A stretch of DNA of 64,000 bases from Escherichia coli (GTDB lineage: Bacteria > Pseudomonadota > Gammaproteobacteria > Enterobacterales > Enterobacteriaceae): the NCBI RefSeq assembly GCF_003019035.1, contig NZ_CP027447.1; one strand, 5' to 3'. The notes beneath the pieces are model-generated. The model saw nothing but the letters and a program-made list of their open reading frames with translations, searched no databases and was not told the DNA's origin. How positions within the stretch are numbered: the first letter of the stretch is position 1; each line of letters starts with the position of its first letter. This document shows, in pieces, positions 8,304-35,916 of this stretch. Both the position numbers and the translations under genes were made by a program.

Positions 8304-9956
8304 ATGTCATTGGACTATATTAAAGAACAGTTGTCAGACTTTATTTCATCTGCAGAACCTGAGGTAATGGCTATTCAGGGTGAATGGGGGATTGGGAAAA
8401 CCTATACTTGGAATACTTTCTTAAAGGAAAATAAAAATAAGATTGCATTTAATAGATATAGTTACGTCTCTCTTTTTGGTGTTAATTCATTGGACGCATT
8501 AAAATATTCCATCTTTGAAAATACAATTACAAAAGATTTTATTGGAAATAAACCTAATTTAAAAACAGCAACACAAAATACAAAGGGACTTCTTGAATCC
8601 TGCACTAGAAAGACCGCTCGTTTGTTAAAAGAAACACCTGTTGTGAAAAATTTCGCTACGACACTTGAGTCAATGTCATTTATGTCAATTACTAATGTTA
8701 TTGTAGTCATAGATGACTTAGAAAGACGTGGTAAAAATTTAGAAGTGAAAGATGTCTTAGGGTTGGTTTCTTTATTGAAAGAACAAAAAAATTGTAAGGT
8801 GGTTCTTTTACTTAATAATGGGACAAGTGGTATGGATGATTACTCCACTTATAAAGAAAAGGTTATTGATAGAGAGATTACCTATAACCCTACGCCAGAA
8901 GAATGTGCAGCTATAGCATATAAAAATAATTCTGATGTTCATAAATTATTAAGCAAATACTCCATTTCTCTGGGTATTAAAAATATTCGGATACTGAAAA
9001 AAATAGAGCGGTTTTTGCTAGCCTTGTTACCTGCTATTAACGTTAATTTTGATAAAATTGCAAATGAAGTCGCACGCTCCTTAACTTTGTATTGTTGGAG
9101 TCATTACGCATTTACTCCAGATGGAGATGTACCATCATTGGAATATATTAGAAATATGAGAAATATCTATATGCGTGATGAAAAAGAGGATGGAAAAGGA
9201 AAAAAATGGCTTAATACTTTGCTTATATATGGTTATAAAAAAACAAACGAACTTGATGAAGTCCTTATAGACATGGTTAAGCATGGATATATTGATATGA
9301 ACAATTTTCAAAGGCAAGTAAGTCTAAGAAATGATGAACTTATCCGTGATAGTAAGCGAGGTTCACTGTTTGAAGCATGGAAGCTTTTCTATAATTCATT
9401 TGAAGATAACCGAAATCAGGTTGTTGATAATCTATATCAAGCGGTGGTTGGTGGGATAGAGTATGTAACTCCAAGTGACTTGGATAGTGTTGTCGGACTG
9501 TATAGAGATTTAGATGAAAATATTAAAGCAAGTGAATTAATAAGTAAATTTATTAATTACGGCAATGATGCTCTTAAGGAATATGTCCAATCTATTTACA
9601 TGAATGTTCATCCTATAAAAGATGCTGAGTTAAAGTCAAAAATCCAAGATTATTCTATTACTTTAAATCTGGATGGTTCTATAAAGGATGTTCTAATAAA
9701 ATTATCAAGTCAGAATGGTTGGTCTGATAGGCACGAGGAAATATTGGATGCTGCCTCAGAGGATGACTACTATGATTTATTTAAAAAAGTCATTCTTGAA
9801 GGTGGTGATTCAATAATAGCCACTGCTCTTAAGTTTGGTGGGTATAGCAATGGTTCAGATAGAATGAAACGCATCGGAGAAAAAGCGAGAAATGCTTTGA
9901 TAAGAATTGGAAATGAGTCGAAGATTAATAAAATACGTGTTAGACGGTATTTGTAA
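8304..9956 (+). CDS. KAP-family P-loop NTPase (standalone, ~550 aa)
   Basis: Walker A GEWGIGKT (KAP signature GxWGxGK[ST]) and Walker B VIVVIDDLERR; no obvious transmembrane insert; AT-rich; perfect TATAAT at 8268-8273 upstream. ATG 8304 chosen for RBS spacing; the track ORF begins at 8274. Confidence 0.8.
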   Translation: MSLDYIKEQLSDFISSAEPEVMAIQGEWGIGKTYTWNTFLKENKNKIAFNRYSYVSLFGVNSLDALKYSIFENTITKDFIGNKPNLKTATQNTKGLLESCTRKTARLLKETPVVKNFATTLESMSFMSITNVIVVIDDLERRGKNLEVKDVLGLVSLLKEQKNCKVVLLLNNGTSGMDDYSTYKEKVIDREITYNPTPEECAAIAYKNNSDVHKLLSKYSISLGIKNIRILKKIERFLLALLPAINVNFDKIANEVARSLTLYCWSHYAFTPDGDVPSLEYIRNMRNIYMRDEKEDGKGKKWLNTLLIYGYKKTNELDEVLIDMVKHGYIDMNNFQRQVSLRNDELIRDSKRGSLFEAWKLFYNSFEDNRNQVVDNLYQAVVGGIEYVTPSDLDSVVGLYRDLDENIKASELISKFINYGNDALKEYVQSIYMNVHPIKDAELKSKIQDYSITLNLDGSIKDVLIKLSSQNGWSDRHEEILDAASEDDYYDLFKKVILEGGDSIIATALKFGGYSNGSDRMKRIGEKARNALIRIGNESKINKIRVRRYL

Positions 9957-18375: not shown

Positions 18376-18397
18376 AAGCCAGCCTTTATTTTTTTAT
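18365..18397 (+). terminator. rho-independent terminator after S
   Basis: GGCTGGC-ATAAAA-GCCAGCC hairpin followed by TTTATTTTTTT. Confidence 0.55.
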
Positions 18398-19251
18398 GTG
18401 ATGGCCCCTATCTTTTGATTGTAATAACTATAATCAGCATGTTCTTCTGTATAAAAAATCTCAAATGCAGACAAGATGTTTGCGTAAAAACTATCCTTGG
18501 ATATAGAGGTTTTTTTATTGATGGATGCCAAAAAGTTTGTTATAAATCTTAATGATGCTGAGAAAAGAAAGTGCCCTTTCACCCAATGATTTATAGATGT
18601 ATTTTCTGGGAATTGAATGTTGTTTTTTTCTGCCAAACCATTAGTAGTAAACGATTCAGGTAGTCTATTGATATATTCATCTATTTTTTTCTTGCATATA
18701 TTGTATGAATTTCTTGATTGCATAAAACGATCACAGGAATCACCAATTACGGAGCATCCTAATTTATTTAAATGATTGTGAATATCTAGTATTATTAAGT
18801 TCTCAATGTTGCTATAGAAGTTAGAAAGCCAATTTCCTACATCTATTTCCTGCATTTTTTTTGTGCAAAAACGGCCTGTGTTTTTGAGTATGTGTGATAT
18901 GATTTTTTCATCAATGATTGTGTTTTCTATTGAATATCCCTTTGTGTAAATAATATTTGTATGCTTTACTATGTTGTCAGAAAAATGGTTTAGATCCGAA
19001 TCTCTGGCAACTATGGCGTTTATTTCTCCTGAGGTTATTTTTTCGATATATGGTTGTAAAGCTTCACATCCACCAACATCTTGAACTTCTACATTAAAAC
19101 GACCATTTTTTTTAAAAATTATTTCCCAAAAAGCAATGTCATCTTCACCTTCAACATAGACCATAATATCAGCATCATAAAATAAACTGATCACATTTTC
19201 CGCTTCATTAGACCAAGAAAAGTTTTCTGCATTAGAATCATTGATTAGCAT
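18394..19251 (-). CDS. Toprim/DUF4435-like protein (AriB-like), 285 aa
   Basis: Toprim-like acidic motifs VYVEGEDD (conserved Glu) and IVARDSD (DxD); overlaps the upstream ATPase gene by 14 bp; very AT-rich. Confidence 0.65.
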   Translation of the reverse strand: MLINDSNAENFSWSNEAENVISLFYDADIMVYVEGEDDIAFWEIIFKKNGRFNVEVQDVGGCEALQPYIEKITSGEINAIVARDSDLNHFSDNIVKHTNIIYTKGYSIENTIIDEKIISHILKNTGRFCTKKMQEIDVGNWLSNFYSNIENLIILDIHNHLNKLGCSVIGDSCDRFMQSRNSYNICKKKIDEYINRLPESFTTNGLAEKNNIQFPENTSINHWVKGHFLFSASLRFITNFLASINKKTSISKDSFYANILSAFEIFYTEEHADYSYYNQKIGAIT

Positions 19252-20494
19252 TGACTAATCTCTCCATATTGAAAATGGCGTTTTTATATTTAGATGCAAC
19301 TTCAGGAGAATGGGTTGCAGCAATAATTTGTGCATTAGGATTTAATTTTTTTATGGCAGGGATAATATTTCTTTGCCATTGAATATGTAAGGAAAGCTCA
19401 GGCTCATCAGTTAGGAAAATATATTGTTGCCCTCTTTGTAAGAGGGTCTCAATGAATAAAATTAGCAGTTGTTTTTCACCAGAAGATAAACTTTCTAAAA
19501 CTATTGGCCCATAGGTGTTATTTATGACTAACAATCCCGATTGAAAATGAAATTCTTTATCGGTGATAAAATTTCTTAGTATGCTTAAGAATTGTTCTAT
19601 TGGAGAAAATATTTTTGATGTTTTCTCTTTTGAAGTTAATGACATTTTGATTATTTTTTGTGTTTTTCTCAATGCTTCGATCGAACGAATATCAAAGCCT
19701 CTTTCACTTTTATTCTTTAATTCTGAAATGGTATTATTAATTGTTTCAACATGAAAGCTGATTTTTTTACGAATGTTTTGATCAATAGCATTTAACTGTG
19801 TGTATGCATTAAGGAGGTTTTGTTTTTCTTCCTCTTTGTTAAAGTTAATGTTGTAAGCAGGATTCTCCATATCTTCCTTGCTATAAAGTATTGATGCCAG
19901 AACCTCTTTTTGAAGTTCTAATGCGATATCTCTGGCTTTCTGGGATAGTTCAAGTTGATATTTTGTAAGTTCCTGTATTAATTCTGATAACTTATAGTCA
20001 ACAGGGTTGATAAAACGAGAGCCATATTTATCTTTAACTTCAAAATCATCACTATTTCTTAATCTGTAAACAGATAAAGAAGAAAGCGAGACTAGTTTTG
20101 CTAGTTCTGTTCTTAGTTCTTCTGTTTCATCATGCACTCTACGTCTATAACTAAGAGATATTCTTCTATCATCAGTGTTAAATAAACGAATTGTGTGTTT
20201 TTTAGATGAAAGCTGATATTCTATTTTGGAAAATGGAGATGTATCGCTTTCAAGTTTTTTGACTTTGATTGTTTTTGTCTTTTTTTTATCTTTAAGTTTT
20301 ATTTCGGCACTATTGAAATCAGCATTGTTAATACTGTCCAAATCAAGGGATAATATTGAGTGCAGAAGGTTCATAAAGGTTGTTTTACCCGTGCCATTTC
20401 GGCCTATAATAATGTTTACATCATCATTAAATGAGCAGGAACAGTTTAATCGCTGCCAAAAGCCATTAATTGTGACGCTTTGAATTTTATACAT
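19238..20494 (-). CDS. ABC/SMC-like ATPase (AAA_15/AAA_21-type, AriA-like), 418 aa
   Basis: Walker A GRNGTGKTT, ABC-signature-like LSSGEKQ, Walker B YIFLTDEPELSLH, H-loop IIAATHSPEV, with a charged coiled-coil-like insert between them. Confidence 0.75.
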   Translation of the reverse strand: MYKIQSVTINGFWQRLNCSCSFNDDVNIIIGRNGTGKTTFMNLLHSILSLDLDSINNADFNSAEIKLKDKKKTKTIKVKKLESDTSPFSKIEYQLSSKKHTIRLFNTDDRRISLSYRRRVHDETEELRTELAKLVSLSSLSVYRLRNSDDFEVKDKYGSRFINPVDYKLSELIQELTKYQLELSQKARDIALELQKEVLASILYSKEDMENPAYNINFNKEEEKQNLLNAYTQLNAIDQNIRKKISFHVETINNTISELKNKSERGFDIRSIEALRKTQKIIKMSLTSKEKTSKIFSPIEQFLSILRNFITDKEFHFQSGLLVINNTYGPIVLESLSSGEKQLLILFIETLLQRGQQYIFLTDEPELSLHIQWQRNIIPAIKKLNPNAQIIAATHSPEVASKYKNAIFNMERLVNANQ

Positions 20495-21541: not shown

Positions 21542-22436
21542 CCTTTCGCAGTTGCCAGCACCGCAGATTGTGGATGTGCCGGACTTTGAGACGCTGCTTG
21601 CCGAACGCAAGGCAGAATTTGTGGCGCTTCATCCGAAAGATGAGCAGGAAGCAGTGATCCGCACGCTGGAACTGGAATCTGAACCCGTCACCAAATTGTT
21701 GCAGGAGAACGCTTACCGTGAGTTGCTTCTGCGCCAGCGTATTAACGAAGCCGCGCAGGCGGTGATGGTGGCTTACGCAATGGGCGGAGATCTTGACCAG
21801 CTCGCCGCTAATTACAATGTGAAACGCCTGACGGTGACACCTGCTGATTATGACGCTGTGCCGCCCGTTGCGGCTGTGATGGAAAGCGATGAAGCGTTAC
21901 GCCTGCGTGTGCCTGCGGCTTTTGAAGGGCTTTCGGTTGCGGGGCCAACTGCAGCTTATGAATTTCATGCCCGAAGCGCCGACGGTCGGGTGGCGGATGC
22001 CAGTGCAACCAGTCCGGCACCTGCAGAGGTGGTGCTGACTGTCCTGAGCCGCGAAGGCGATGGAACAGCAGAAAAAGACCTGCTGGACGTGGTGGAAAAA
22101 GCTCTGAACAGTGAGAACGTCCGCCCGGTGGCTGACCGTCTGACGGTTCGCAGCGCAGAAATCATCCCGTACCGCGTGGAAGCTACCATTTTTCTCTATC
22201 CGGGGCCGGAAGCAGAGCCGGTAATGGCAGCGGCAAAAGCCAGTCTGCAGAAGTACATCGCCAGTCAGACGCGGCTTGGTCGGGATATTCGCCGTAGCGC
22301 CATCTTTGCCGCCCTGCATGTTGAGGGAGTGCAGCGTGTGGAGCTGGCTTCACCACTGGCGGATGTGGTCTTGAACAAAACACAGGCCGCATCATGTACG
22401 CAGTGGAGCGTAACCAACGGAGGAACGGATGAATAG
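21528..22436 (+). CDS. baseplate protein (P2 gpJ homolog)
   Basis: 302 aa from ATG 21528 (MAVIDLSQLPAP...), matching the gpJ N-terminus and length. Confidence 0.9.
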   Translation: MAVIDLSQLPAPQIVDVPDFETLLAERKAEFVALHPKDEQEAVIRTLELESEPVTKLLQENAYRELLLRQRINEAAQAVMVAYAMGGDLDQLAANYNVKRLTVTPADYDAVPPVAAVMESDEALRLRVPAAFEGLSVAGPTAAYEFHARSADGRVADASATSPAPAEVVLTVLSREGDGTAEKDLLDVVEKALNSENVRPVADRLTVRSAEIIPYRVEATIFLYPGPEAEPVMAAAKASLQKYIASQTRLGRDIRRSAIFAALHVEGVQRVELASPLADVVLNKTQAASCTQWSVTNGGTDE

Positions 22437-23034
22437 TCTGCTGCCACCGGGTTCAACTTCACTGGAGCGCCGACTGGCGCAGACCTGTAGCGGGATTTCT
22501 GATCTGCAGGTGCCGCTGCGTGACTTGTGGAATCCGGCAACCTGTCCGGTCAGTTTCCTGCCTTATCTCGCCTGGGCGTTCTCTGTGGATCGCTGGGACG
22601 AGGTCTGGACAGAAAGCGTCAAGCGCCAGGTGGTGAAGGATGCTTTTTATATTCATCAGCATAAAGGGACCACCAGTGCCGTGCGGCGGGTGGTGGAGCC
22701 GTTCGGCTTTCTGATTCGCATTATTGAGTGGTGGCAGACCGGAGAGACACCGGGCACGTTTCGTCTGGATATCGGCGTGCAGGACCAGGGCATCACTGAA
22801 GATACCTATCTGGAACTTGAGCGACTGATAAGCGATGCCAAACCATGTAGCCGTCACATGATCGGCATGTCCATCAACCTGCAGACCAGCGGCCCGCATT
22901 GGGTGGGAGTCGCCAGCTATCTTGGCGAAGAAATCACGATTTATCCGTATATCAACGAAACGATTATTTCCGGCGGCACCGCGCATGAAGGCGGGGCGGT
23001 CCATGTTATTGACACAATGAGAGTGAATCCATGA
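22429..23034 (+). CDS. baseplate/tail protein (P2 gpI homolog)
   Basis: 201-aa ORF between J and the tail fibre gene. Confidence 0.85.
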   Translation: MNSLLPPGSTSLERRLAQTCSGISDLQVPLRDLWNPATCPVSFLPYLAWAFSVDRWDEVWTESVKRQVVKDAFYIHQHKGTTSAVRRVVEPFGFLIRIIEWWQTGETPGTFRLDIGVQDQGITEDTYLELERLISDAKPCSRHMIGMSINLQTSGPHWVGVASYLGEEITIYPYINETIISGGTAHEGGAVHVIDTMRVNP

Positions 23035-24407
23035 GCACAAAATTTTATACCCTGCTGACGGATATTGGCGCGGCGAAACTTGCCAGCGCCGCCGCGCTCG
23101 GTGTGCCGCTAAAAATTACCCATATGGCGGTGGGCGATGGCGGTGGAGCATTGCCGACGCCGGACGCAAAGCAGACTGCACTGGTAAATGAGAAACGCCG
23201 GGCTGCGCTGAATATGCTCTATATCGACCCGCAGAACAGTAGCCAGATTATTGCTGAACAGGTGATCCCTGAAAACGAGGGCGGTTGGTGGATACGTGAA
23301 GTGGGCCTGTTTGATGAGTCAGGGGCATTGATTGCCGTGGGAAACTGCCCGGAAAGCTATAAGCCGCAACTGGCTGAAGGCAGCGGGCGCACCCAGACTG
23401 TGCGCATGGTGCTGATTACCAGCAGCACGGACAATATCACCCTGAAAATCGACCCTGCCGTCGTGCTGGCAACCCGCAAGTATGTGGATGATAAGGTACT
23501 GGAGCTGAAGGTGTACGTGGATGATCAGATGGCAAAACATCTTGCCGCACCGGACCCACATTCACAGTACGCACCCAAAGAAAGCCCGATATTTACCGGA
23601 ACACCCAAAGCGCCAACGCCAGCGGCTGGGAATAATACCACGCAGCTTGCGACCACCGCGTTTGTTCAGGCGGCACTGACGACACTGATTAATGGTGCGC
23701 CAGCCACGCTGGACACGCTGAAAGAAATAGCCACAGCCATTAACAATGATCCGAAATTCAGTACCACTATCAACAATGCGCTGGCACTGAAAGCGCCGTT
23801 GTCGAGTCCGGCACTCACCGGAACGCCAACAGCACCTACTGCGGCACAGTCGGTCAACAATACACAGATTGCCACCACGGCTTTTGTGAAATCGGCGATT
23901 GCGGCAATGGTGGGTTCTGCCCCTGCGGCACTGGATACACTGAACGAACTGGCGGCGGCACTGGGGAATGACCCGAATTTTGCCACGACAATGCTTAATG
24001 CGCTGTCAGGTAAACAACCGCTGGACAATACGCTGACTAATTTGAGTGGAAAGGATGTTGCTGGTCTTCTCGCATTCCTGGGTTTGAAAACCGCCGCACA
24101 ACGCGACGTTGGGACTGGCACAAATCAAATTCCTGACATGAACGCTTTTAGCTCTGGCTCTGGCTGGCAGAAATTACCTGGAGGCAGGATTCTGCAGTGG
24201 CGGGGAATAGCCAATGGCCCTGGGGATATTACAAGCCCGCTACCCATTCCATTTCCAAATCGCGCAATAGGATGGGCAATTACGTCCGATTATGTACCAG
24301 GGTCAGGCGGAGTTGGCACAATAGCGGGGACGTGTACTGCAACGAATATCATTTCACGAAATACAAATGTGAGCACTGGTGGTAGCGCTATCGTAGTGGG
24401 GGAATAG
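23031..24407 (+). CDS. tail fibre protein (P2 gpH homolog)
   Basis: 458 aa; conserved gpH-type N-terminus (MSTKFYTLLTDIGAAKLA...); repetitive Ala/Thr-rich shaft; divergent C-terminus. Confidence 0.85.
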   Translation: MSTKFYTLLTDIGAAKLASAAALGVPLKITHMAVGDGGGALPTPDAKQTALVNEKRRAALNMLYIDPQNSSQIIAEQVIPENEGGWWIREVGLFDESGALIAVGNCPESYKPQLAEGSGRTQTVRMVLITSSTDNITLKIDPAVVLATRKYVDDKVLELKVYVDDQMAKHLAAPDPHSQYAPKESPIFTGTPKAPTPAAGNNTTQLATTAFVQAALTTLINGAPATLDTLKEIATAINNDPKFSTTINNALALKAPLSSPALTGTPTAPTAAQSVNNTQIATTAFVKSAIAAMVGSAPAALDTLNELAAALGNDPNFATTMLNALSGKQPLDNTLTNLSGKDVAGLLAFLGLKTAAQRDVGTGTNQIPDMNAFSSGSGWQKLPGGRILQWRGIANGPGDITSPLPIPFPNRAIGWAITSDYVPGSGGVGTIAGTCTATNIISRNTNVSTGGSAIVVGE

Positions 24408-24409
24408 GT

Positions 24410-24832
24410 ATGAGAACGTATCGCTATGACGCAATAACAAACGCATTTTATCCGTATGAGCTACAGAATGAGTATGAACAAGCAGGGATGTGGCCGGAGT
24501 CGGGCCATGATGTGAATGAAGATATTTTTCAGCAATTCATCAACCCTCCCGCAGGTAAGGTGCGTGTTGCCGGGAATGACGGAATGCCAGCATGGGGGGA
24601 TATTCCGCCACCGGCTCATGATGAACTCGTTGCGGTAGCAGATGTGAAAAAAGCAGCACTATTGGCAGAAGCGTCAGTCGTTATCGCCCCGCTGGCTGAT
24701 GCACAGGCGGGCGGTTATATCGATGACGCTGACGTGCCGCGACTGGCAGCATGGCAGAAATATCGCTATGCACTGACGAAAGTGGATACATCAACTGCGC
24801 CGGATATCACCTGGCCGCTGCAACCAGTGTAG
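24410..24832 (+). CDS. tail fibre assembly protein (P2 gpG / Tfa homolog)
   Basis: 140-aa ORF directly after H. Confidence 0.8.
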   Translation: MRTYRYDAITNAFYPYELQNEYEQAGMWPESGHDVNEDIFQQFINPPAGKVRVAGNDGMPAWGDIPPPAHDELVAVADVKKAALLAEASVVIAPLADAQAGGYIDDADVPRLAAWQKYRYALTKVDTSTAPDITWPLQPV

Positions 24833-25016
24833 AAATCTTTAGTGTAAATCGTCAAAGATGCTGGCGACTTGATGATTGATGACGGTATCAGTGATGATAA
24901 TTTACAGGTTGTACGGGAATAATACATAACAATTTGAATGGGGTATAATAGATAAATAATACATCATCATACCCCATTTTAGCCATTATCTATTGGCAAA
25001 AATATTCTTAATACCT

Positions 25017-26054
25017 TTATATTTGCCTACCTCCTAATAAAATGTGTGAGGTGTATTTGTTGGTTTTCAATAACCTTGCTACAATTATACAGGTGGTTAC
25101 AATAAGGAAAACAAATGAAGGGGTTATGATGAGGTTATATATGAGTGGATTTTCGCATAGGTTATTAATGTTCACGTATGCCTCTATTCTGTGAAAAATA
25201 AACGACGAGATTATATAGATGGGAAAGGTGTAAGTACCGACAAAGGATGTGGCTCGTATAAATAAATTATTTTTCGTTGATAAAAATGTATAAGCATATA
25301 TAAGCGATATGCTTCCGGCGAAGCCAATGAAGTAGCGAAATATAATAATGAATGATTGATGCCAGAAATCAACATTCTCATATGTCATTTTAGATATGTA
25401 AATATAATACTCTCTATTCCATAGGAGAAGCATACCAATCCATGTTAATACGGCTAACACACCAATTTTGTGCCTATTTCTAGAGGCAAAATCTAAAATG
25501 CGATGGGCGGATATACCAGCGATAAAATAAGGGGCCATAAATTTAATTTTGTCCATATTCCAATCATCTCCATATGCAAGGGATATACTAAATATCAGTA
25601 AATAAAGCACCACAGAATATTGTTTGCTTATTGAGTGACAAATAGTATAAACAATAGATACTGCAAAGAGTGCAGAAAGGAACCAGAAGGCGTAGATGGC
25701 TCCATATCTAATATTTATTAAATTTATATCTCTTCCCACAAAAATGGATTCAGCAATGAACCATGCAATGGATGGGATTATTAACTGCATGAATTTTCTT
25801 TTGATAATTGATGATGGTTTTCTCTTGAGAGAAAAATAGAAAAGATAGCCGCTAAGCAGCATAAAAAATGGCATGTGGAAGCTGTAAATGGTAATAAATA
25901 ATGGGTTGTCAAAAAAATTGAAACTATCTTTTTTTACAAACTGAATTGAATGGCCCCACACGACAAAAATTATAGCTAATCCTTTCATTGAGTCTATAAT
26001 GGAATTTCGAGTGCTGGGTGTCTCTGTTATAATAAGATGTGGTTCGTTTTTCAT
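25017..26054 (-). CDS. acyltransferase family 3 integral membrane protein (O-antigen/LPS O-acetyltransferase-like)
   Basis: 345 aa, highly hydrophobic multi-TM; N-terminal region GLAIIFVVWGHSIQF typical of acyltransferase-3; very AT-rich; opposite strand to tail genes. Confidence 0.75.
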   Translation of the reverse strand: MKNEPHLIITETPSTRNSIIDSMKGLAIIFVVWGHSIQFVKKDSFNFFDNPLFITIYSFHMPFFMLLSGYLFYFSLKRKPSSIIKRKFMQLIIPSIAWFIAESIFVGRDINLINIRYGAIYAFWFLSALFAVSIVYTICHSISKQYSVVLYLLIFSISLAYGDDWNMDKIKFMAPYFIAGISAHRILDFASRNRHKIGVLAVLTWIGMLLLWNREYYIYISKMTYENVDFWHQSFIIIFRYFIGFAGSISLIYAYTFLSTKNNLFIRATSFVGTYTFPIYIISSFIFHRIEAYVNINNLCENPLIYNLIITPSFVFLIVTTCIIVARLLKTNKYTSHILLGGRQI

Positions 26055-26386
26055 TTAATTTGTCAACTTTAGATTGAGTGGTATAAGAATTGCAACTAAA
26101 CACTCGTGAGCTAATATTTACATATATTATCAATGATCATTAATTCAATCAATTAGGAATTGCTTTATTGTATGTAACAGATTCTCATTTTGGGGTAGAT
26201 GCTACTATTGCTGTCATCACACCATAAATTAAGTCCATTCATATTAGATATCTTGGGTCGTTCCGGGAAGTACACGGCCACTATCAGTAAATGTGTGGTA
26301 AGAGCTTCACCAGTCGAACGTTTTTGAAAATACAGAGATAATGGCTAACAGGCATCATCCCCGGTTTTTATTTAGGGGGATGCTCA

Positions 26387-26706
26387 TGCTTATTGGCTAT
26401 GTACGTGTATCAACAAATGACCAGAACACTGATTTGTAATGCAATGCGCTGAACTGCGCGGGATGTGCGCGGATTTTTGAGGATAAAATCAGTGGCACTA
26501 AGTCCGACAGGCCGGGACTGGCTGCAGCTCGCGCCAAAGGCAGAGTAGGTGGACGCCGTCCTAAGTTGACCACCGAACAGTGGGCACAGATTGGACGTTT
26601 ACTCGAGGCCGGAGAATCAAGACAGCGTATTGCACTGATTTTTGATGTAGGCGTTTCTACCATTTATCGAAAATTTCCGGCAAATAAGAGCAATGAATCT
26701 CCCTGA
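26387..26706 (+). pseudogene. DNA invertase (Hin/Gin/Pin/Cin serine recombinase) pseudogene
   Basis: N-terminus MLIGYVRVSTNDQNTDL then in-frame TAA (26438-26440) where Hin has Gln; RPGL joins directly to AAARAKGR (catalytic core of ~100 codons missing); C-terminal HTH GGRRPKLTTEQWAQIGRLL...STIYRKF is in a different frame (1-nt shift near 26640). Confidence 0.8.
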
Positions 26707-26754
26707 ATCAGCTTTATTTTGATTATCCCTGAAAGCAGACAAATACCGTCATTT

Positions 26755-26772
26755 TGTGTGAATAACGGTACA
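26755..26772. promoter_or_regulatory. candidate late-promoter activator site upstream of FI (TGTGT-N9-TACA)
   Basis: TGTGTGAATAACGGTACA, centred ~85 bp upstream of the FI start codon. Confidence 0.45.
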
Positions 26773-26848
26773 ACTGCGCTTAGCTGTTTGTCAGGCACAA
26801 TAACTTCAACATAGGGCGAAGCCTAATCCAATCAGGAGGTTCGCCACT

Positions 26849-28021
26849 ATGGCTCAGGATTACCACCACGGGGTGCGCGTAGTTGAAGTCAACGAAGGCA
26901 CCCGATCCATTACCACGGTGAGCACCGCCATCGTGGGTATGGTCTGCACGGGCGATGATGCCGATGCAAAAATGTTTCCTCTTAATAAACCCGTGCTGAT
27001 CACTGATGTGCTGACTGCCAGCGGTAAAGCGGGTGAGTCCGGTACGCTGGCCCGTTCGCTGGATGCCATCGCTGACCAGGCAAAACCCGTGACCGTTGTT
27101 GTGCGTGTGCCGCAGGGTGAAACGGAAGAAGAAACCACGACCAATATCATCGGAGCAGTGACCGCTGAAGGTAAAAAAACAGGCATGAAAGCCCTGTTAT
27201 CTGCCCAGTCACAGCTCGGCGTTAAACCGCGCATTCTCGGCGTGCCAGGTCACGACACGAAGGCGGTAGCTACTGAGTTGCTGAGCGTGGCGCAAAGCCT
27301 GCGTGGGTTTGCTTACCTGTCAGCGTATGGTTGCAAGACGGTGCAGGAAGCAATCACTTACCGTGAAAACTTCAGTCAGCGTGAAGGAATGCTGATCTGG
27401 CCCGACTTTACTGGCTGGGACACGGTGCTGAATGCCGAAGCAACGGCTTATGCCACCGCCCGTGCGCTTGGTCTGCGCGCTAAAATTGACGAGCAGACCG
27501 GATGGCACAAAAGCCTGTCCAACGTGGGCGTGAACGGTGTCACCGGAATTTCTGCTGATGTGTTCTGGGATCTGCAGGACCCGGCAACCGATGCAGGTCT
27601 GCTGAACCAGAACGACGTCACCACGCTTGTGCGTAAAGACGGTTTCCGCTTCTGGGGTTCCCGCAGCCTGAGTGATGACCCGCTCTTTGCCTTCGAAAAC
27701 TACACCCGCACGGCGCAGGTGTTGATGGACACGATGGCAGAAGCACACATGTGGGCGGTGGATAAACCGCTTAACCCGTCGCTGGCCCGCGACATTATCG
27801 AAGGTATCCGCGCCAAAATGCGCAGCCTGGTCAGTCAGGGCTATCTCATTGGTGGTGATTGCTGGCTGGATGAGTCGGTGAACGACAAAGACACGCTGAA
27901 AACCGGAAAACTCACCATCGACTATGACTACACGCCAGTGCCGCCACTTGAAAATCTGATGCTGCGCCAGCGCATCACCGATCAGTACCTGGTGAATTTC
28001 GCCAGCCAGGTCAGCGCGTAA
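26849..28021 (+). CDS. tail sheath protein (P2 gpFI homolog)
   Basis: 390-aa ORF followed by the tail tube gene. Confidence 0.9.
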
Positions 28022-28030
28022 GGGGACAAC

Positions 28031-28546
28031 ATGGCTTTACCACGCAAATTAAAACATCTGAACTTGTTTAACGACGGGAACAACTGGCAGGGGATCGTTG
28101 AGTCGCTGACGCTGCCGAAATTCACCCGCAAATATGAGAAGTATCGCGGCGGCGGTATGCCGGGGGCGGTGGATGTGGATCTGGGACTGGATGACAGTGC
28201 ACTGGATACAGAATTTTCCATTGGTGGTACTGAACTGCTGCTGTTTAAGCAGATGGGCAAATCCACGGTGGATGGCATCCAGCTGCGCTTTACCGGCTCT
28301 ATCCAGCGTGACGATACCGGGGAAGTGCAGGCCGTGGAGCTTGTCGTGCGTGGACGTCACAAAGAAGTGGATTCCGGCGAGTGGAAGACGGGCGAAAGCA
28401 ACACCACCAAAGTGACCAATACCAACAGCTACGCGAAGCTGACCATCAATGGTGAGGTGCTCTATGAAGTGGACCTTATCAACATGGTGGAAATTGTGGA
28501 CGGTGTGGACCTGATGGAAGCGCACCGCAACGCCCTCGGCCTCTGA
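28031..28546 (+). CDS. tail tube protein (P2 gpFII homolog)
   Basis: 171-aa ORF after the sheath gene. Confidence 0.9.
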   Translation: MALPRKLKHLNLFNDGNNWQGIVESLTLPKFTRKYEKYRGGGMPGAVDVDLGLDDSALDTEFSIGGTELLLFKQMGKSTVDGIQLRFTGSIQRDDTGEVQAVELVVRGRHKEVDSGEWKTGESNTTKVTNTNSYAKLTINGEVLYEVDLINMVEIVDGVDLMEAHRNALGL

Positions 28547-28600
28547 TGTATCTGAACGGCGCGGAATACCGCGCCAGAACCCAATTGACAGGACAGCAAA

Positions 28601-28903
28601 ATGAGCGATAAGCAGACTGAAAAGACCATTCAACTGGATACCCCCATCAAGCGCGGTAAAACAGAAATCACCGAAATTGTGCTGCGTAAACCGCAGTCCG
28701 GTGCGCTGCGCGGTACACGCCTGCAGGCCATTATGGATATGGATGTAAACGCGATGATGACCGTGATCCCCCGCATCTCCAGTCCGGCACTGACTGCACA
28801 GGAAATTGCAGAGATGGACCCGGCAGATCTCACTGCCATGTCGGTTGAGGTTGTCACTTTTTTGTTGAAGAAGTCGGTGCTTGCCGTTTTACCGACAGCC
28901 TGA
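28601..28903 (+). CDS. tail assembly chaperone (P2 gpE homolog)
   Basis: 100-aa ORF upstream of the tape measure gene; contains a T6G slippery site near its 3' end. Confidence 0.8.
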   Translation: MSDKQTEKTIQLDTPIKRGKTEITEIVLRKPQSGALRGTRLQAIMDMDVNAMMTVIPRISSPALTAQEIAEMDPADLTAMSVEVVTFLLKKSVLAVLPTA

Positions 28904-29037
28904 CGGTTGACGATCTGGTGGCAGATATCGCCACCATTTTTCACTGGCCGCCATCCGTTACTGACGTTATGCCGCTGACCGAAGTGCTGGAATGGCGGTA
29001 TAAAGCGATTCAGAGAAGCGGGGCCAACGATGAGTGA
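28601..29037 (+). CDS. tail assembly chaperone frameshift product (gpE+E' equivalent, -1 frameshift at 28858-28864)
   Basis: Slippery TTTTTTG at 28858-28864; the -1 frame continues open (FFVEEVGACRFTDSLTVDDLVADIATIFHWPP...RSGANDE) to TGA at 29035-29037, overlapping the T start. Confidence 0.65.
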
Positions 29038-32000
29038 TAACAACCTGCGTCTGCAGGTCATTCTTAATGCGGTTGACAAGCTCACCCGCCCATTTCGATC
29101 TGCGCAGGCCAGTTCAAGAGAACTGGCTGCTGCTGTCAAAAAATCCCGCGATGCAATAAAGCAGCTTGATCAGGCCGGGAGCAGTCTGGACAGCTTCCGA
29201 AAGCTGCAGGCAGAAAATCAGAAATTAGGCGACAGGCTGAACTATGCCCGCCAGCGTGCAAATTTGCTCAGTCAGGAACTGGGAGCGATGGGGCCGCCTT
29301 CGCAACGTCAGGTTGTTGCTCTGGGCCGTCAACGGCTGGCTGTTCAGCGCCTGGAAGAACGCCAGAAAAAGCTGCAGCAGCAGACGGCGCTTGTGCGTGC
29401 TGAACTGTACCGGGCGGGAATTTCTGCGAAAGACGATGCGGGAGCAACTGCCCGTTTAGCCCGTGAAACATCACGTTATAACCAGGAACTTTCGAAACAG
29501 GAGGCGCGGCTGAAGCGACTGGGGGAAGCTCAGCGCAGGATGAATGCAGCGCGTGCCAGTTATGCCCGTTCGCTGGAGGTGCGTGATCGTATTGCAGGTG
29601 CCGGAGCCACCACCACGGCTGCAGGGCTGGCAATGGGTGCGCCAGTGATGGCGGCAGTAAAAAGCTATACCAGCATGGAAGATGCCATGAAAGGTGTGGC
29701 AAAGCAGGTCAATGGTCTGCGTGACGATAATGGCAACCGCACTGCACGTTTTTATGAAATGCAGGATGCCATCAAGGCTGCCAGCGAACAGTTGCCGATG
29801 GAAAACGGTGCGGTGGACTTCGCTGCACTGGTTGAAGGTGGTGCGCGCATGAACGTCGCAAACCCTGACGACAGCTGGGAAGATCAGAAACGTGACCTGC
29901 TGGCCTTCGCCAGTACGGCAGCAAAGGCGGCAACAGCCTTTGAGCTGCCAGCGGATGAACTGTCAGAAAGTCTGGGGAAAATCGCCCAGCTCTACAAAAT
30001 CCCCACCCGCAATATTGAACAGCTCGGTGATGCGCTGAACTATCTGGATGATAACGCCATGTCGAAAGGGGCAGACATCATTGATGTGATGCAACGTCTG
30101 GGCGGTGTGGCTGACCGTCTGGATTATCGTAAAGCGGCGGCGCTGGGTTCCACCTTCCTGACACTGGGCGCTGCGCCAGAGGTTGCAGCCAGTGCAGCAA
30201 ACGCGATGGTGCGTGAATTGTCCATTGCCACCATGCAAAGCAAGAGTTTCTTTGAAGGGATGAATCTGCTGAAACTCAATCCTGAAGTGATTGAAAAGCA
30301 GATGACGAAGGATGCGATGGGAACCATCCAGCGCGTGCTGGAGAAGGTAAACGCGCTGCCGCAGGACAAGCGCCTGTCTGCCATGACTATGTTGTTTGGT
30401 AAAGAGTTTGGCGATGACGCGGCGAAACTGGCAAACAACCTGCCGGAACTGCAGCGTCAGTTAAAACTGACAGCGGGCAATGATGCGCTTGGCTCCATGC
30501 AGAAAGAATCCGACATTAACAAGGATTCACTTTCTGCGCAGTGGTTGCTGGTCAAAACCGGAGCGCAGAACACCTTCAGCAGCCTGGGCGAAACGCTGCG
30601 CCAGCCGCTGATGGATATTCTGTACACGGTGAAAAGCGTCACGGGGGCGTTGCGTCGCTGGGTGGAAGCTAACCCGGAACTGACAGGCACACTGATGAAA
30701 GCATCGGCTGTTGTGGCTGCGGTTACCGTCGGCCTCGGCACCTTAGCGGTGGCGCTGGCTGCAGTGCTGGGGCCGCTGGCAGTGATCCGTCTGGGATTCT
30801 CTGTGTTGGGTATCAAAACGTTATCTTCCGTTACGGCAGCAGTAACCCGAACCAGCAGCGCGTTGTCCTGGCTGGCTGGCGCACCACTGGCACTGCTGCG
30901 ACGCGGGCTTGCTTCATCGGGCAACGCCGCAGGTTTACTTACTGCGCCGTTGTCGTCTTTGCGCCGCACGGCATCACTGACGGGAAATGTCCTGAAAACT
31001 GTAGCAGGTGCGCCGGTTGCATTTTTGCGGTCTGGATTATCCGGTTTACGTGCTGTTGCTGTGATGTTTATGAATCCTCTGGCGGTACTGCGCGGTGGAC
31101 TGGCCGCCGCAGGCACGGTGCTGCGAGTACTGGCATCTGGTCCACTGGCGATGCTGCGCGTTGCCCTGTATGTCATATCTGGTCTGTTAGGTGCTCTGCT
31201 CAGTCCGATAGGTCTTGTGGTTACTGCACTGGCGGGCGTGGCGCTGGTTGTCTGGAAATACTGGCAACCCATCACCGCATTTCTCGGTGGCGTGGTGGAA
31301 GGATTCAAAGCGGCGGCAGGTCCCATCAGTGCAGCGTTCGAACCGCTTAAGCCCGTGTTCCAGTGGATTGGCGACAAAGTGCAGGCGCTGTGGGGCTGGT
31401 TTACTGATCTGCTGACGCCCGTTAAGTCGACCTCTGCCGAACTGCAGAGCGCAGCGGCAATGGGGCGGCGATTCGGGGAGGCACTGGCGGAAGGGCTGAA
31501 TATGGTCATGCATCCGCTGGACTCCCTGAAATCCGGCGTTTCCTGGTTGCTGGAGAAGCTCGGCATTGTCAGTAAAGAGGCCGCAAAGGCAAAACTGCCG
31601 GAAAGCGTGACGCGTCAGCAACCTGCGACGGTGAATGCAGACGGTAAAGTGATGATGCCATCGGGTGGTTTTCCATCATGGGGATATGGCTTTGCGGGGA
31701 TGTATGACAGCGGCGGGTATATCCCGCGCGGGCAGTTTGGCATCGTCGGTGAAAACGGGCCGGAAATTGTTAACGGCCCGGCAAATGTGACCAGCCGGAG
31801 AAATACAGCTGCACTGGCTGCCGTTGTTGCCGGAATGATGGGCGTTGCTGCCGCGCCAGCAGAGCTTCCACCGTTGCACCCCTTGGCACTTCCCGCGAAA
31901 GGTGGAGAAGCAATTGTGAGTCGCGCAGCCACTGTGCCGCTCGTTCAACGGATTGAGGCACCGACGCAGATCATCATTCAGACGCAGCCAGGACAAAGTG

Positions 32001-32107: not shown

Positions 32108-32589
32108 TGATGGTGCTGGGATTGTACGTGTTTATGCTGCGCACCGTTCCGTATCAGGAACTGCAGTATCAACGCAGCTGGCGACATGCGGCAAACAGTC
32201 GGGTAAACCGACGTCCGTCCACGCAGTTTCTGGGACCGGAAAACGACATGCTGACGCTTTCCGGTGTTCTTATGCCGGAAATAACAGGCGGCAGGCTGTC
32301 GTTGCTGGCACTGGAGCAGATGGCAGAACAGGGGAAAGCATGGCCCCTGATTGAAGGCAGCGGCACGATTTACGGCATGTATGTGATTGAGGGACTGAAT
32401 CAGACTAAAACGGAGTTTTTCCGCGACGGTATGCCGCGCCGGATTGAGTTCACCCTGTCGCTCAAACGAGTGGATGAATCCCTGTCCGATATGTTCGGTG
32501 ATCTCAGTGCGCAACTGAATAATCTGCAGGACACGGCAACGTCTGCCTTAAGCGATATCAGTAAAACGGTGGGAGGGCTGCTGTCGTGA
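32104..32589 (+). CDS. tail protein (P2 gpU homolog)
   Basis: 161 aa; ATGA overlap with T stop. Confidence 0.85.
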   Translation: MMMVLGLYVFMLRTVPYQELQYQRSWRHAANSRVNRRPSTQFLGPENDMLTLSGVLMPEITGGRLSLLALEQMAEQGKAWPLIEGSGTIYGMYVIEGLNQTKTEFFRDGMPRRIEFTLSLKRVDESLSDMFGDLSAQLNNLQDTATSALSDISKTVGGLLS

Positions 32590-33686
32590 ATTTCAGCTCT
32601 GAACTGCTTAACAAAGGCAACAAAACTCCCGCATTCAGCATCAGTATTGAGGGCAGGGATATCACCACTGTGCTGGATAACCGCCTGATGAGTTTGACGC
32701 TGACGGATAACCGGGGCTTTGAAGCGGACCAGCTTGATCTGGAGCTGGATGACGCTGACGGAAAAATCGTGCTGCCGCGCCGTGGTGCGGTTATTACGCT
32801 GGCGCTGGGCTGGAAGGGGCAGCCGCTTTTCCCGAAAGGGGCATTCACAGTGGACGAGATTGAACACACTGGCGCACCGGACCGCCTGACTATCCGGGCG
32901 CGAAGTGCTGATTTTCGGGAAACGCTGAATACCCGCCGTGAAAAATCGTGGCATAAGACCACCGTCGGGGAAGTGGTGAAGGAAATAGCCGCGCGGCACA
33001 AGCTGAAGATGGCACTGGGTAAAGACCTGTCGGATAAGCCCGTGGAGCATATAGACCAGACTAATGAGAGTGACGGCAGTTTTCTGATGCGGCTGGCGCG
33101 ACAGTACGGTGCCATCGCGTCGGTGAAAAATGGCAATCTGTTATTCATCCGGCAGGGGCAGGGCAAAAGCGCCACTGGTAAACCTCTGCCAGTGATCACT
33201 ATCACACGCAAGGACGGCGACAGTCACCGATTTACCCTGGCAGATCGCGGAGCCTACACGGGCGTAATTGCCAGCTGGTTGCATACCCGCGAACCTGCGA
33301 AGAAAGAAAGCACCACGGTGAAGCGTAAGCGCAGAACTAAGAAGCAGAAGAAAGAGCCGGAAGCGAAGCAGGGCGATTACCTGGTGGGTACGGATGAAAA
33401 CGTGCTGGTACTTAATCGCACTTATGCCAACCGGAGCAACGCTGAACGGGCAGCGAAAATGCAGTGGGAACGCCTGCAACGCGGCGTTGCGTCATTCTCG
33501 CTACAACTGGCGGAAGGTCGGGCAGATCTCTACACGGAAATGCCTGTGAAGGTCAGCGGCTTTAAACAGCCGATAGATGATGCGGAATGGACCATTACGA
33601 CTCTGACACATACCGTCAGCCCGGATAACGGTTTTACGACCAGTCTGGAGCTTGAAGTGAGGATTGATGATTTCGAAATGGAATGA
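32586..33686 (+). CDS. late control/tail protein D (P2 gpD homolog)
   Basis: 366 aa; last structural gene before ogr. Confidence 0.85.
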   Translation: MNFSSELLNKGNKTPAFSISIEGRDITTVLDNRLMSLTLTDNRGFEADQLDLELDDADGKIVLPRRGAVITLALGWKGQPLFPKGAFTVDEIEHTGAPDRLTIRARSADFRETLNTRREKSWHKTTVGEVVKEIAARHKLKMALGKDLSDKPVEHIDQTNESDGSFLMRLARQYGAIASVKNGNLLFIRQGQGKSATGKPLPVITITRKDGDSHRFTLADRGAYTGVIASWLHTREPAKKESTTVKRKRRTKKQKKEPEAKQGDYLVGTDENVLVLNRTYANRSNAERAAKMQWERLQRGVASFSLQLAEGRADLYTEMPVKVSGFKQPIDDAEWTITTLTHTVSPDNGFTTSLELEVRIDDFEME

Positions 33687-33776
33687 TTCTTCGCAATGGA
33701 GAACTTTTAAGTTTGCAAAATGGAATAATGCGGTATCATTATTGTGAATTTAGCAAAAATGGGGAGAACTCGAAAA

Positions 33777-33995
33777 ATGATGATTTGCCCACTGTGTGGA
33801 AGTGCCGCCCATACTCGCAGCAGTTTTCAGGTATCTTCATTGACCAAAGAGCGTTACAACCAGTGCCAGAACATTAACTGCAGCCATACTTTTGTTACCC
33901 ATGAAACTTTTGTTCGTTCGATTGCAACGCCAAAAGAGTCAAATCCGGTTCAGCCGCATCCAATGAAATCAGGACAGGTGGCGCTCTCTCTTTGA
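33777..33995 (+). CDS. ogr: Ogr/Delta-family zinc-finger late transcription activator
   Basis: MMICPLCGSAAHTRSS...CQNINCSHTF matches the Ogr C-x2-C...C-x4-C zinc finger; last phage gene before the host junction. Confidence 0.85.
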   Translation: MMICPLCGSAAHTRSSFQVSSLTKERYNQCQNINCSHTFVTHETFVRSIATPKESNPVQPHPMKSGQVALSL

Positions 33996-34230
33996 CGCTG
34001 CCGCCATTATGTCGCCATCGTTAAAAAACAGTGCTTCTAATATCATGATTTTAAAAGGCATAAATTTTAGGCAACAAAAAACCCACCAACCTTGAACCGA
34101 AATGGCGGGGTTGATGGGCTCCACAAAATGGGGACATCAAAGAAAAGCAGTGGCACTAATTAAGACTGATGCCCTGCGGAAAAGTTCTGCGGTTGTGCAA
34201 AAAAATTTCATTTTCAGGGCAACTTCAGTT

Positions 34231-35916
34231 TTATCCTAATCCTGGCCATACCATGACGATGATTGTCCCTGCCAGCGTCAGCAGGACGTTGGCGATTGCA
34301 TAGGTGCCCGCATAGCCCAGCGCCGGGATGTTACTGCGAGCTGTATCACTGATGATCTCCATTGCCGGCGCGCAGGTGCGTGCGCCCATCATTGCGCCGA
34401 ACAACAGTGCGCGGTTCATTCGCAATACATAAGCACCGAACAAGAAGCAGATAACCACTGGCACCAGACTGACAATCAATCCGGCAATCAACATTTGACC
34501 GCCAATCGCGCCCAGGCCGTTATTAATACCGCTACCGGCGCTCAGACCAACGCCTGCCATAAACACCATCAAGCCGAACTCTTTCACCATGCTTAATGCA
34601 CCTTGCGGAATGTAACCGAAGGTCGGGTGGTTAGCACGCATAAAGCCCAGCATAATTCCGGCGAATAACAACCCGGCAGCGTTCCCCATGCCGAAACTGA
34701 ATGTGCTGAACTGGAAGGTGATCATCCCGATCATCAGCCCAATAACAAAGAAGGCGCAGAATGCCAGCAAGTCAGTGACCTGGCTGTGAATCGAGATAAA
34801 GCCGATGCGATCGGCGATGGTTTTTACCCGGCGGGCATCGCCGCTGACTTGTAAAACGTCACCTTTGTTAAGCACGACGTTGTCATCAATCGGCATCTCA
34901 ATCTGGCTACGTATGACGCGGTTAAGGAAGCAACCGTGATCGGTCAACTTCAGTTGTGCCAGGCGTTTGCCAACAGCGTTATGGTTTTTAACGACCACTT
35001 CTTCAGTGACGATTCGCATGTCGAGAAGGTCACGATCGAAAACTTCTTTGCCATTACGGAAACTGGGATCGAGTCGGGCGTGGGCGTCGGGATAGCCTAC
35101 CAACGCTATTTCATCGCCCATTTGTAGTACGGCATCACCGTCTGGATTTGCCAGAATCCCGTTACGCCGAATACGTTCAATGTAACAGCCAGTTTGTCGA
35201 TAAATACCCAGTTCACGCAGATTTTTGCCGTCGGTCCAGGCCACCAGCTCCGGGCCGACGCGGTAGGCGCGGATCACCGGCAAATAAACCTTACGGTTGG
35301 CATCTGTGTCCAGGCCACGTTCGCGGGCGATTTGCTGGGCGCTGGTCTGTAAGTCCTGATGCTGCAATTTCGGCAAGTAACGCGCACCAACAATCAAACT
35401 CACCAGACCGATTAAATAGGTTAAGGCATACCCGAGGCTCAGATTATCCAGTGCCAGTGAGAGCTGCCTGCTTTCCATGCCGGAATGACGCAGTGTATCG
35501 CCAGCACCGACCAAAACCGGTGTTGACGTCATAGAGCCTGCTAACATACCGGCCGTCAGGCCAATATCCCAGCCAAACAGCTTACCTAACCCTAAGGCGA
35601 TGACCAGCGCACTGCCAACCATCACCAGTGCTAACATTAGGTAATTTTTCCCATCGCGAAAAAAAATGGAAAAAAAGTTCGGTCCGGCTTCGACCCCGAC
35701 GCAGAAAATAAACAGCATAAAGCCAAGATTAAGCGCGTCGGTGTTAATGCTGAAATGTTGTTGGCCTAATAACAGCGATACGACTAAAACGCCAATGGAA
35801 TTACCCAGTTGGATCGAACCAAGTCGTAATTTCCCGAGACATAGCCCAAGCGCGAGGACCACAAATAATAACAGAATGTAATTCCCATTTAACAATTCGG
35901 CGACGTTTATATTCAC
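34231..35916 (-). CDS. ybjL: putative transporter YbjL (AAE antiporter family)
   Basis: 561-aa membrane protein with two TrkA-C-like soluble domains; position and length as in E. coli K-12. Confidence 0.85.

Follow-up and report, generated by a model that had tools for sequence, protein, structure and literature searches.

Next to the tail fibre genes of a P2-like prophage, the chromosome of Escherichia coli (RefSeq assembly GCF_003019035.1, contig NZ_CP027447.1) carries an interrupted gene of the Hin/Gin family of DNA invertases. The 64,000-nucleotide stretch analysed here (the window) raises two questions: did an ancestor of this prophage possess an invertible tail-fibre switch, as the original prediction made from the letters of the window proposed, and, if so, how was the switch lost? 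The window is E. coli chromosome (its flank at 50900-54900 is 100% identical to E. coli SCU-301) holding a prophage whose nearest characterised relative is Escherichia phage Cartapus (Peduoviridae, Elveevirus). We conclude with high confidence that the locus is the relic, no longer functional, of a tail-fibre switch of the Gin/Pin type, and that in this P2-like E. coli prophage (Peduoviridae, Cartapus-like) a fixed cassette replaced the invertible segment, after which the invertase decayed.

The invertase gene lies at 26386-26706 on the plus strand (106 codons) and was identified as a Gin-family pseudogene by Pfam, by PHROG and by alignment with relatives. Its conceptual product matches Pfam Resolvase over residues 3-71 (3.5e-12), HTH_7 over residues 56-99 (8.5e-16) and the PHROG DNA invertase family (2.4e-41). 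The intact Cartapus homologue (188 aa, 567-bp gene) aligns without a gap to residues 1-184 of Mu Gin (3UJ3, 4M6F; E 8e-93), so that Gin numbering is directly applicable to the remnant. The family assignment of the original prediction is thereby upheld; an alignment placing the open reading frame (ORF) outside the serine invertases did not arise.

Two lesions were found. The first is at codon 18 (26437-26439), where the predicted in-frame TAA is real: relatives carry CAA, and the first position of the codon is C in all 50 aligned relatives. The second is an in-frame deletion of 246 bp (82 codons) with respect to the Cartapus gene, by which Gin residue 45 comes to be followed directly by residue 128. 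When the DNA is aligned with that of Cartapus and of the plasmid-prophage p13P477T-2, it is this deletion that makes RPGL abut AAARAKGR. Residues 46-127 are lost, including D64, R65 and R68 of the D-R-x-x-R motif as well as most of helix E, which serves dimer and tetramer formation, so that the catalytic pocket is incomplete. The gene's first 135 bp are kept, a part of the 5′ region in which switches of this type have a Fis-dependent recombinational enhancer: the N-terminal resolvase-type domain begins with MLIGYVRVST, contains Ser9, and is limited to residues 1-45 with the stop at codon 18. The predicted loss of the catalytic core is therefore true of residues 46-127 and not of the nucleophile Ser9, Arg7, Asp33 and Arg42, which are still encoded. 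The retained 3′ part (26521-26706, plus strand) specifies the end of helix E, the GRRP minor-groove linker (within GRVGGRRPKL) and, behind it, the HTH_7 helix-turn-helix (HTH) domain, and is a common E. coli P2-like allele. A third predicted lesion, a 1-nt frameshift ahead of the HTH, was rejected by three-frame translation, which gives a single invertase-reading frame across 26386-26706, MLIGYVRVSTNDQNTDL*CNALNCAGCARIFEDKISGTKSDRPGLAAARAKGRVGGRRPKLTTEQWAQIGRLLEAGESRQRIALIFDVGVSTIYRKFPANKSNESP; in a sister lineage described below (L087) the same frame is an open 106-aa ORF. Because Gin residues 46-127 are deleted, we file the locus as a pseudogene of the family and not as a working member.

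The deletion junction lies inside GGACTG at 26515-20. In relatives the corresponding endpoints are direct repeats, GGGCTG or GGGGCTG, placed 246 bp apart; such repeats appear to be the signature of a microhomology deletion.

The ancestral state can be read from phages that retain the system. Cartapus and about 45 close relatives carry H, a chaperone gene, an inverted chaperone′, an inverted tip′ and an intact invertase, and in these about 45 both the paired crossover sites and the invertible segment are present, in agreement with the predicted ancestor. Their right site, located just upstream of the invertase gene, is TTCTCCCAAACC AA CGTTTATGAAAA in 58 of 66 relatives, and its outer half CGTTTATGAAAA is invariant (66/66). 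Their left site, inside H, is TTCTC[G/A]CATACC TT GGTTTGGGAGAA. Wherever both sites could be read (about 45 relatives), the left core was TT and the right core AA (reverse complement TT) without exception, and as inverted repeats the inner halves matched at 10-12 of 12 positions, with one case at 8/12. These site sequences agree with the crossover sites tabulated for EC958 Phi2 (PMC4134206). In this ancestral type, the invertase gene stands between the fibre genes and the gene for the sheath, and its product flips the segment between the sites, 1.1-3.7 kb long, and so swaps two sets of tip and chaperone.

Five IMG/VR contigs (L061, L067, L072, L073 and L080) carry two inverted copies of the outer half-site and invertase 5′ region about 1.9 kb apart, each copy being followed by a full invertase ORF in several of them. 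These double copies are likely to reflect assembly of both orientations or a fold-back artefact; a real two-invertase arrangement is less likely.

What occupies the place of the invertible segment in the window? Homology to Cartapus-type phages ends at the left site and restarts at the core of the right site. Between them lies a foreign block (24054-26323) made of a fibre tip, a chaperone gene, an acyltransferase gene and AT-rich spacers. Over 2,270 bp this block is 97.0% identical to a prophage of Escherichia sp. E10V10 (L082), which is a non-P2 myovirus located next to thrS. The match falls at the end of that prophage and includes tip, chaperone, acyltransferase and spacers; it was found through chaperone G, for which E10V10 has a 99% identical protein. 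Neither 5,426 complete E. coli genomes nor 50,697 phage records contained a match to the block. Over 22000-29098, every 150-bp stretch is 94-100% identical to relatives, with the exception of this block and of a diverged patch discussed below.

The left boundary falls within the tail fibre gene H (23031-24407, plus strand, 458 aa, from the ORF list). H has a P2-like constant part up to about 24078 and, from about 24081, a tip belonging to the foreign block: its first ~1,050 nt align closely with H of Cartapus and p13P477T, and similarity collapses past the left site (residues 1-393 were recovered by tblastn at 93% identity). It is followed by the tail fibre assembly chaperone gene, the G/U equivalent (24410-24832, plus strand; PHROG 188, 3.4e-44). 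Beyond E10V10, the next relatives of this chaperone are at most 68% identical, and the named ones are mostly from Citrobacter. The acyltransferase gene (25017-26054, minus strand) is convergent with the chaperone gene, and an AT-rich spacer upstream of it (26055-26304, 33% GC) is common to the window and E10V10.

The block thus holds a single tip and chaperone set, with the acyltransferase in the position of the other, and the 24 contigs whose context was read show one orientation only. The original prediction had linked the loss of the switch to acquisition of the acyltransferase cargo. The cargo does sit where the alternative genes would be; it came as part of a 2.27-kb block together with the active tip and chaperone. 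Since the ends of this block coincide with both crossover sites, and since it is common to an unrelated prophage at 97% identity, the whole invertible segment was replaced and not its second half only.

Both crossover sites of the window were recovered only by alignment with relatives, as a scan of the window with the whole-site consensus (up to 3 mismatches) gave no match. The left site (24067-24092, plus strand), established by three-way alignment, reads TTCTCGCATTCC TG GGTTTGAAAACC. Its outer half is of P2 type and its inner half of donor type, that is, of the type found in E10V10, and its core is TG rather than TT; the parental sites are TTCTCGCATACC TT GGTTTGGGAGAA in Cartapus and TTCTCCAATACC TT GGTTTGAAAACC in E10V10. 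The right site (26305-26330, plus strand, 26 bp) reads CTTCACCAGTCG AA CGTTTTTGAAAA, with the core AA at 26317-26318, and is likewise a hybrid of ATTCACCAATCG AA CCTTTGATGGAG (E10V10) and TTCTCCCAAACC AA CGTTTATGAAAA (Cartapus). Its inner half is of donor type; its outer half CGTTTTTGAAAA (26319-26330) is of P2 type and matches CGTTTATGAAAA at 11 of 12 positions, far above chance. A hix/gix-like half-site had been predicted near 26322-26335; the half-site is real and lies three bases further left. The possibility that the inner half of the right site had decayed in place was rejected, E10V10 having the same sequence, which is therefore donor sequence. Three substitutions in the sites are specific to the window: A to T at 24076, T to G at 24080 (in the left core) and A to T at 26324.

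Taken as a pair, the two sites no longer form inverted 26-bp repeats with identical central dinucleotides: their inner halves match at 4 of 12 positions by direct comparison, and their cores are TG and AA (reverse complement TT). With such hybrid sites and no second tip, any inversion would truncate the fibre protein; a hypothetical core-to-core inversion fuses H to ...LRLVKLLPHIY*, ending at residue 360 of 458. Judged from the sequence, the switch is dead in four independent ways: broken enzyme, unequal cores, non-symmetrical inner halves and absence of an alternative tip. Because inversion with the cassette in place would give fibre-defective virions, loss of the invertase may have been favoured, and not merely tolerated; this would be a plausible selective reason for its decay.

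The order of the lesions is given by a sister lineage (L087/L088), whose backbone is 97.5% identical to that of the window. It carries the same block and the same deletion, and has CAA at codon 18, so that in L087 the remnant is an open 106-aa ORF with both Pfam domains. The stop codon is therefore the younger of the two lesions. We propose the following course. The whole segment between the cores would have been replaced by a cassette of one tip, its chaperone and the convergent low-GC acyltransferase-3 gene, a replacement that we infer to be the first step and that would have left two hybrid, unpaired sites and no second tip. The invertase, useless or harmful from then on, would have decayed, first by the in-frame 246-bp deletion between GGGCTG repeats, a microhomology deletion, and next by the nonsense mutation of CAA to TAA at codon 18 in the sub-lineage of the window.

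The in-frame nature of the deletion, together with the open ORF of the sister, could be taken to mean that the remnant still functions, either as a small DNA-binding protein acting on the crossover sites (the N-terminal 45 residues plus the HTH, or a 46-aa HTH ORF at 26566-26706) or through inversion of the segment in trans by the invertase of another prophage; such inversion has been inferred in E. coli EC958, one of whose prophages has a truncated invertase (PMC4134206). We regard this as very improbable. The window has the stop at codon 18, and between the two sub-lineages the remnant differs by 8 non-synonymous and 2 synonymous changes, some of them in the HTH part, so that its product is under selection in neither lineage. 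As for inversion in trans, relatives have identical cores and inner halves matching at 10-12/12, whereas the window has TG against TT and 4/12, and inversion would shorten the fibre protein as described above.

The remnant is also a local divergence hotspot between the window and its sister (26250-26749): it shows 11 differences in 321 bp, where the flanking 5 kb differ by about 0.2-0.3%. Several of the L087/L088 variants are alleles of the invertase genes of other relatives, which suggests patchy recombination with other invertase copies.

A non-functional relic is thus our preferred reading, and the remnant retains traces of its earlier history. The region 26324-26520 (plus strand), comprising the outer half-site, the leader and invertase codons 1-45, forms a diverged patch whose allele was not seen elsewhere. 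Among the fetched relatives, identity over 26319-26520 reaches 92.9% at most, and none of the 5,426 complete E. coli genomes reaches 95% over 26301-26520. In contrast to this patch, 26521-29098 is 98-100% identical to relatives (26521-26848 up to 98.8% in complete E. coli genomes; 26521-26706 98.4% among fetched relatives). Nine of the ten window-unique bases in 26319-26972 are located at 26324-26468, and the sister shares seven of these nine. Variants of the patch are 26324T, 26332A, 26350A, 26373T, 26406T, 26430T and 26468C. Divergence through pseudogene decay was rejected on this ground and because the whole remnant differs from Cartapus by 15 synonymous and only 3 non-synonymous changes. 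The patch is rather an allele of the invertase gene that was shaped under constraint in a lineage outside the sample. As the step from about 93% to 98-100% identity falls exactly at the 246-bp deletion junction, the ‘deletion’ may itself be an out-of-register recombination joint between the invertase alleles of two phages and not simple slippage.

The third gene of the block encodes a membrane protein of 345 aa (33% GC) of the acyltransferase-3 family, with PF01757 (Acyl_transf_3) covering residues 19-325 (2.1e-26). It has no match among PHROG families, and its similarity to NolL is weak (68 bits against a cut-off of 425 for the NCBIfam NolL model). In contigs sampled at one genome per species, its relatives are distant only (23-42% identity) and none is in a phage context. 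Other homologues have the following neighbours: one of about 49% identity adjoins gtrA/gtrB-like genes and an integrase in Cronobacter, one of about 50% identity lies beside a chaperone fragment in Kosakonia, and one is found 3′ of fibre and chaperone genes in a Citrobacter prophage. Family membership and these gene neighbours indicate that the protein is probably a surface-polysaccharide acyltransferase acting on O-antigen or another surface glycan, which would modify the cell surface for lysogenic conversion. Its linkage to a tip and a chaperone bears on how receptor recognition and receptor modification may be inherited together. The exact protein is recorded in 138 blocks of the assembly collection, and L018 and L019, the two places compared as DNA, are 100% identical to the window over 23000-27100, the other 22 of the 24 contigs being listed as similar places; these records point to one clonal lineage, of which GCA_040131905.1 is an example. 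In E10V10 the corresponding gene (L082:7608-8644) is called as two ORFs of 257 and 83 aa and is probably disrupted, while it is intact in the window.

The junctions bear on how the block came to be exchanged. On the left, the sequence is of P2 type through TTCTCGCA and of E10V10 type from GGTTTGAAAACC on; over the 13 intervening bases, the core among them, the parents do not differ. On the right, it is of E10V10 type through ...CACCA[G]TCG and of P2 type from GTTT[T]TGAAAA; here AAC is all that the parents have in common, so that the switch must fall within these three bases (26317-26319), which include the core AA. Both sites have the composition expected of core exchange: backbone outer half, core, donor inner half. 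The exchange thus presumably took place at the site cores, mediated by the invertase or by recombination within short conserved site sequences. The precise right junction argues for invertase catalysis; the left junction and the known reluctance of wild-type invertases to act between molecules argue for recombination. The direction of the transfer, from an E10V10-type prophage to the window lineage, is presumed.

A more far-reaching version of the first possibility is that the invertase moved the block between unrelated phage families, catalysing a double exchange at the 2-bp cores; this would be a recombinase-mediated cassette exchange occurring in nature that delivered a receptor-binding tip and a receptor-modifying enzyme as a unit, after which selection killed the dangerous invertase. 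We consider this unlikely, though worth stating: if it were true, the role of tail-fibre invertases would extend beyond phase switching to the horizontal transfer of host range and the acquisition of cargo.

We come closer to an even chance, while staying below it, for ordinary homologous or illegitimate recombination without any role of the invertase, the sites being merely short conserved islands at the constant/variable boundary of fibre genes. The left junction, contained within 13 bases identical in both parents, is what such recombination would leave. Moreover, the motif TTCTCCAATACCTTGG marks the constant/variable boundary in L082 and in a Citrobacter cronae prophage of E10V10 type (L022), both without an invertase, and fibre-tip swapping at this locus is reported to be common (bioRxiv 10.1101/2024.10.15.618418). 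The right junction is harder to explain in this way: its parents have just AAC, followed by TTT, in common, and the switch nevertheless coincides with the 3 bp holding the core dinucleotide of the resident site, which is unlikely for a random illegitimate junction, and the outer-half/core/inner-half composition of a core exchange is found at both ends.

A third account, nearest to the picture of the original prediction, has the cassette assembled where it stands, within an invertible segment of P2-like type. The acyltransferase would have displaced no more than the inverted chaperone′ and tip′, with about 20 nt from the start of the tip left behind, and the finished block would later have been exported to an E10V10-type prophage, with the window lineage as donor. 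The right end of the block (TTCACCA[A/G]TCG AA) does resemble a degraded inner half-site with its core, and the 20 nt left of this core resemble the inverted tip start of SCU-172, so that the last ~20 nt of the spacer may be a relic of such a tip. In a core-anchored alignment this resemblance was borderline and limited to the last 14-20 nt, 4 of 500 shuffles being as good. Local alignment of the spacer with 54 distinct inner flanks of relatives scored no better than shuffled sequence (22 against a null of 19.8 ± 2.4). Searches for an inverted alternative tip in 26056-26316 (blastn against complete E. coli genomes, E up to 10) and of 24833-26316 against phages (blastn) gave nothing. The predicted remnant of an inverted alternative fibre C-terminus was thus not recovered at a significant level beyond the ~20 nt next to the site.

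Comparison among prophages gives this account mixed support. A Citrobacter prophage without acyltransferase (L083) has the backbone sequence AACCTTTGATGGA directly 3′ of the chaperone stop codon, an arrangement by which the acyltransferase part reads as an insertion in the E10V10 family too, and a chaperone of the same family (65% identity) occurs in the P2-like phage L086. Against formation in place, none of the 5,426 complete E. coli genomes contains the tip or the chaperone, and the nearest named chaperone relatives are mostly Citrobacter. L022 has the same three-gene order, with protein identities of 53% (tip), 43% (chaperone) and 49% (acyltransferase); the arrangement is therefore old in the E10V10-type family, and L022 shows no site-like relic. 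With the half-site resemblance being statistically borderline as well, we hold formation in place to be possible and rather doubtful. A tblastn search for invertase remnants in the E10V10 and Citrobacter prophages found none.

Replacement of the segment followed by decay of the invertase remains our reading of the locus, and several points weigh against it. Wild-type Gin-family invertases strongly disfavour intermolecular recombination, and with 13 shared bases across the left core ordinary homologous recombination explains that junction equally well. The function of the acyltransferase is deduced solely from its family membership and the gene neighbours of distant homologues. The patch, about 7% diverged from every sampled relative next to a 98-99% identical 3′ part, suggests a further recombination event, placed at the deletion junction or close to it, for which the simple account has no need. 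Finally, no intermediate with the cassette and a full-length invertase was found, so that we infer, and do not observe, that the cassette preceded the decay.

The setting of the locus is that of a P2-type tail module. The ORF list and the aligned relatives give the order I-H-G-[cargo]-FI-FII-E-E′-T, and the cargo lies between the fibre chaperone gene G and the sheath gene FI, which bound the Z/fun cargo position of P2-like phages. FI (26849-28021, plus strand), the right-hand backbone neighbour, was identified as an ORF annotated as sheath in relatives and 99-100% identical to them. A scan of 24800-26900 for promoters and terminators gave promoter-like sites not above shuffle expectation and terminator-like matches in uninformative places, and an Rfam scan of 24000-27000 gave no match.

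Elsewhere in the prophage, a two-gene, PARIS-like cargo of about 30% GC lies between the tail-completion genes and the baseplate gene V (18394-20494, minus strand). It consists of an AriA-like ATPase (19238-20494; PADLOC AriA 2.2e-38) and an AriB-like gene (18394-19251; 2e-21). A 560-aa ORF at 8274-9956 (plus strand) matches the candidate defence family PDC-S49 (3.7e-25) and, from its position, would occupy the cargo hotspot between replication genes and portal gene of P2-like phages; upstream of it, an orphan Dam-like DNA methyltransferase is encoded at 3397-4314 (plus strand; PADLOC oMTase 3.6e-111). The right end of the prophage lies directly past gene D (32586-33686), where, within 33700-35916, it adjoins a gene of the ybjL-type aspartate:alanine antiporter family (34231-35916; NCBIfam PRK04972, 1178 bits).

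The locus is best compared first with the classical switches, Gin/G of Mu, Cin/C of P1 and Pin/P of e14. The likeness is in the enzyme family (the intact relative of the remnant being collinear with Gin), in the invertase gene located just outside the segment with its 5′ end next to one site, and in the 26-bp sites (12 + 2 + 12), the left of which falls within the fibre gene at the constant/variable boundary. In contrast to these systems, the window has a pseudogene, hybrid sites with unequal cores, and one tip and chaperone set, with the acyltransferase in place of the alternative set.

Closer still are the invertible segments of P2-like prophages of E. coli, for which 26-bp crossover sites and truncated invertases have been described (PMC4272514; PMC4134206). 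Those of EC958 Phi2, of the P2-like prophage of EPEC E2348/69 and of Cartapus have the same backbone and the same position between H/G and FI. The right site of the relatives, read on the opposite strand, is the 3′ site of EC958 Phi2, ...ATAAACG TT GGTTTGGGGGAA (PMC4134206), and the outer half-site and 3′ half of the gene in the window are nearly identical to those of P2-like invertible relatives. These systems were seen to invert by sequencing (PMC4134206, PMC4272514), whereas the window copy, judged from its enzyme, sites and gene content, would be unable to do so.

Decayed invertases beside fibre genes are known from other prophages. That of EC958 Phi4 is truncated and, as in the window, decayed in place, but Phi4 has retained its paired sites and continues to invert, probably in trans (PMC4134206), while the window has disabled sites and a replaced segment. 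Further cases are the frameshifted gene of p13P477T-2, the short ORFs of L039, L049 and L058, and L086, in which invertase decay again accompanies foreign cargo between the chaperone and sheath genes. In this P2-like phage (L086:7398-8773, Logan SRR14117216) a C-terminal invertase fragment (residues 105-182, 85% identity) stands beside an N6/N4 DNA methyltransferase gene, which makes this phage a further, independent instance of cargo at this position accompanied by a decayed invertase.

The G-FI (Z/fun) hotspot is recognised for its cargo, which includes fibre modules and invertases (bioRxiv 10.1101/2024.10.15.618418). The window shares with it the position and the low GC content of the cargo, and has its second, PARIS-like island elsewhere in the prophage. 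It differs in that its cargo is physically linked to a tip and chaperone, travels between unrelated phage families and is bounded by crossover-site sequences.

Phages are known to carry acyltransferases of this kind, Oac of Shigella phage Sf6 being a phage-borne O-antigen acetyltransferase made of the acyltransferase-3 domain alone. Like it, the window gene encodes a single-domain Acyl_transf_3 membrane protein of about 340 aa in a temperate phage; unlike it, the gene is located in the tail-fibre region and not beside int/att.

Crossover sites were reportedly proposed by Sandmeier in 1994 as exchange points for fibre modules, and the hybrid sites of the window put real sequences behind this older idea. 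In annotation, the appropriate label for the locus is that of an invertase pseudogene accompanied by two crossover sites that are dead. Set against the systems above, it is a dissected example of a known process, the loss of a host-range switch on replacement of the invertible segment by fixed cargo, and its addition to them is a modest one: resolved hybrid junctions, and an acyltransferase linked to a tip and chaperone module that is common to different phage families.

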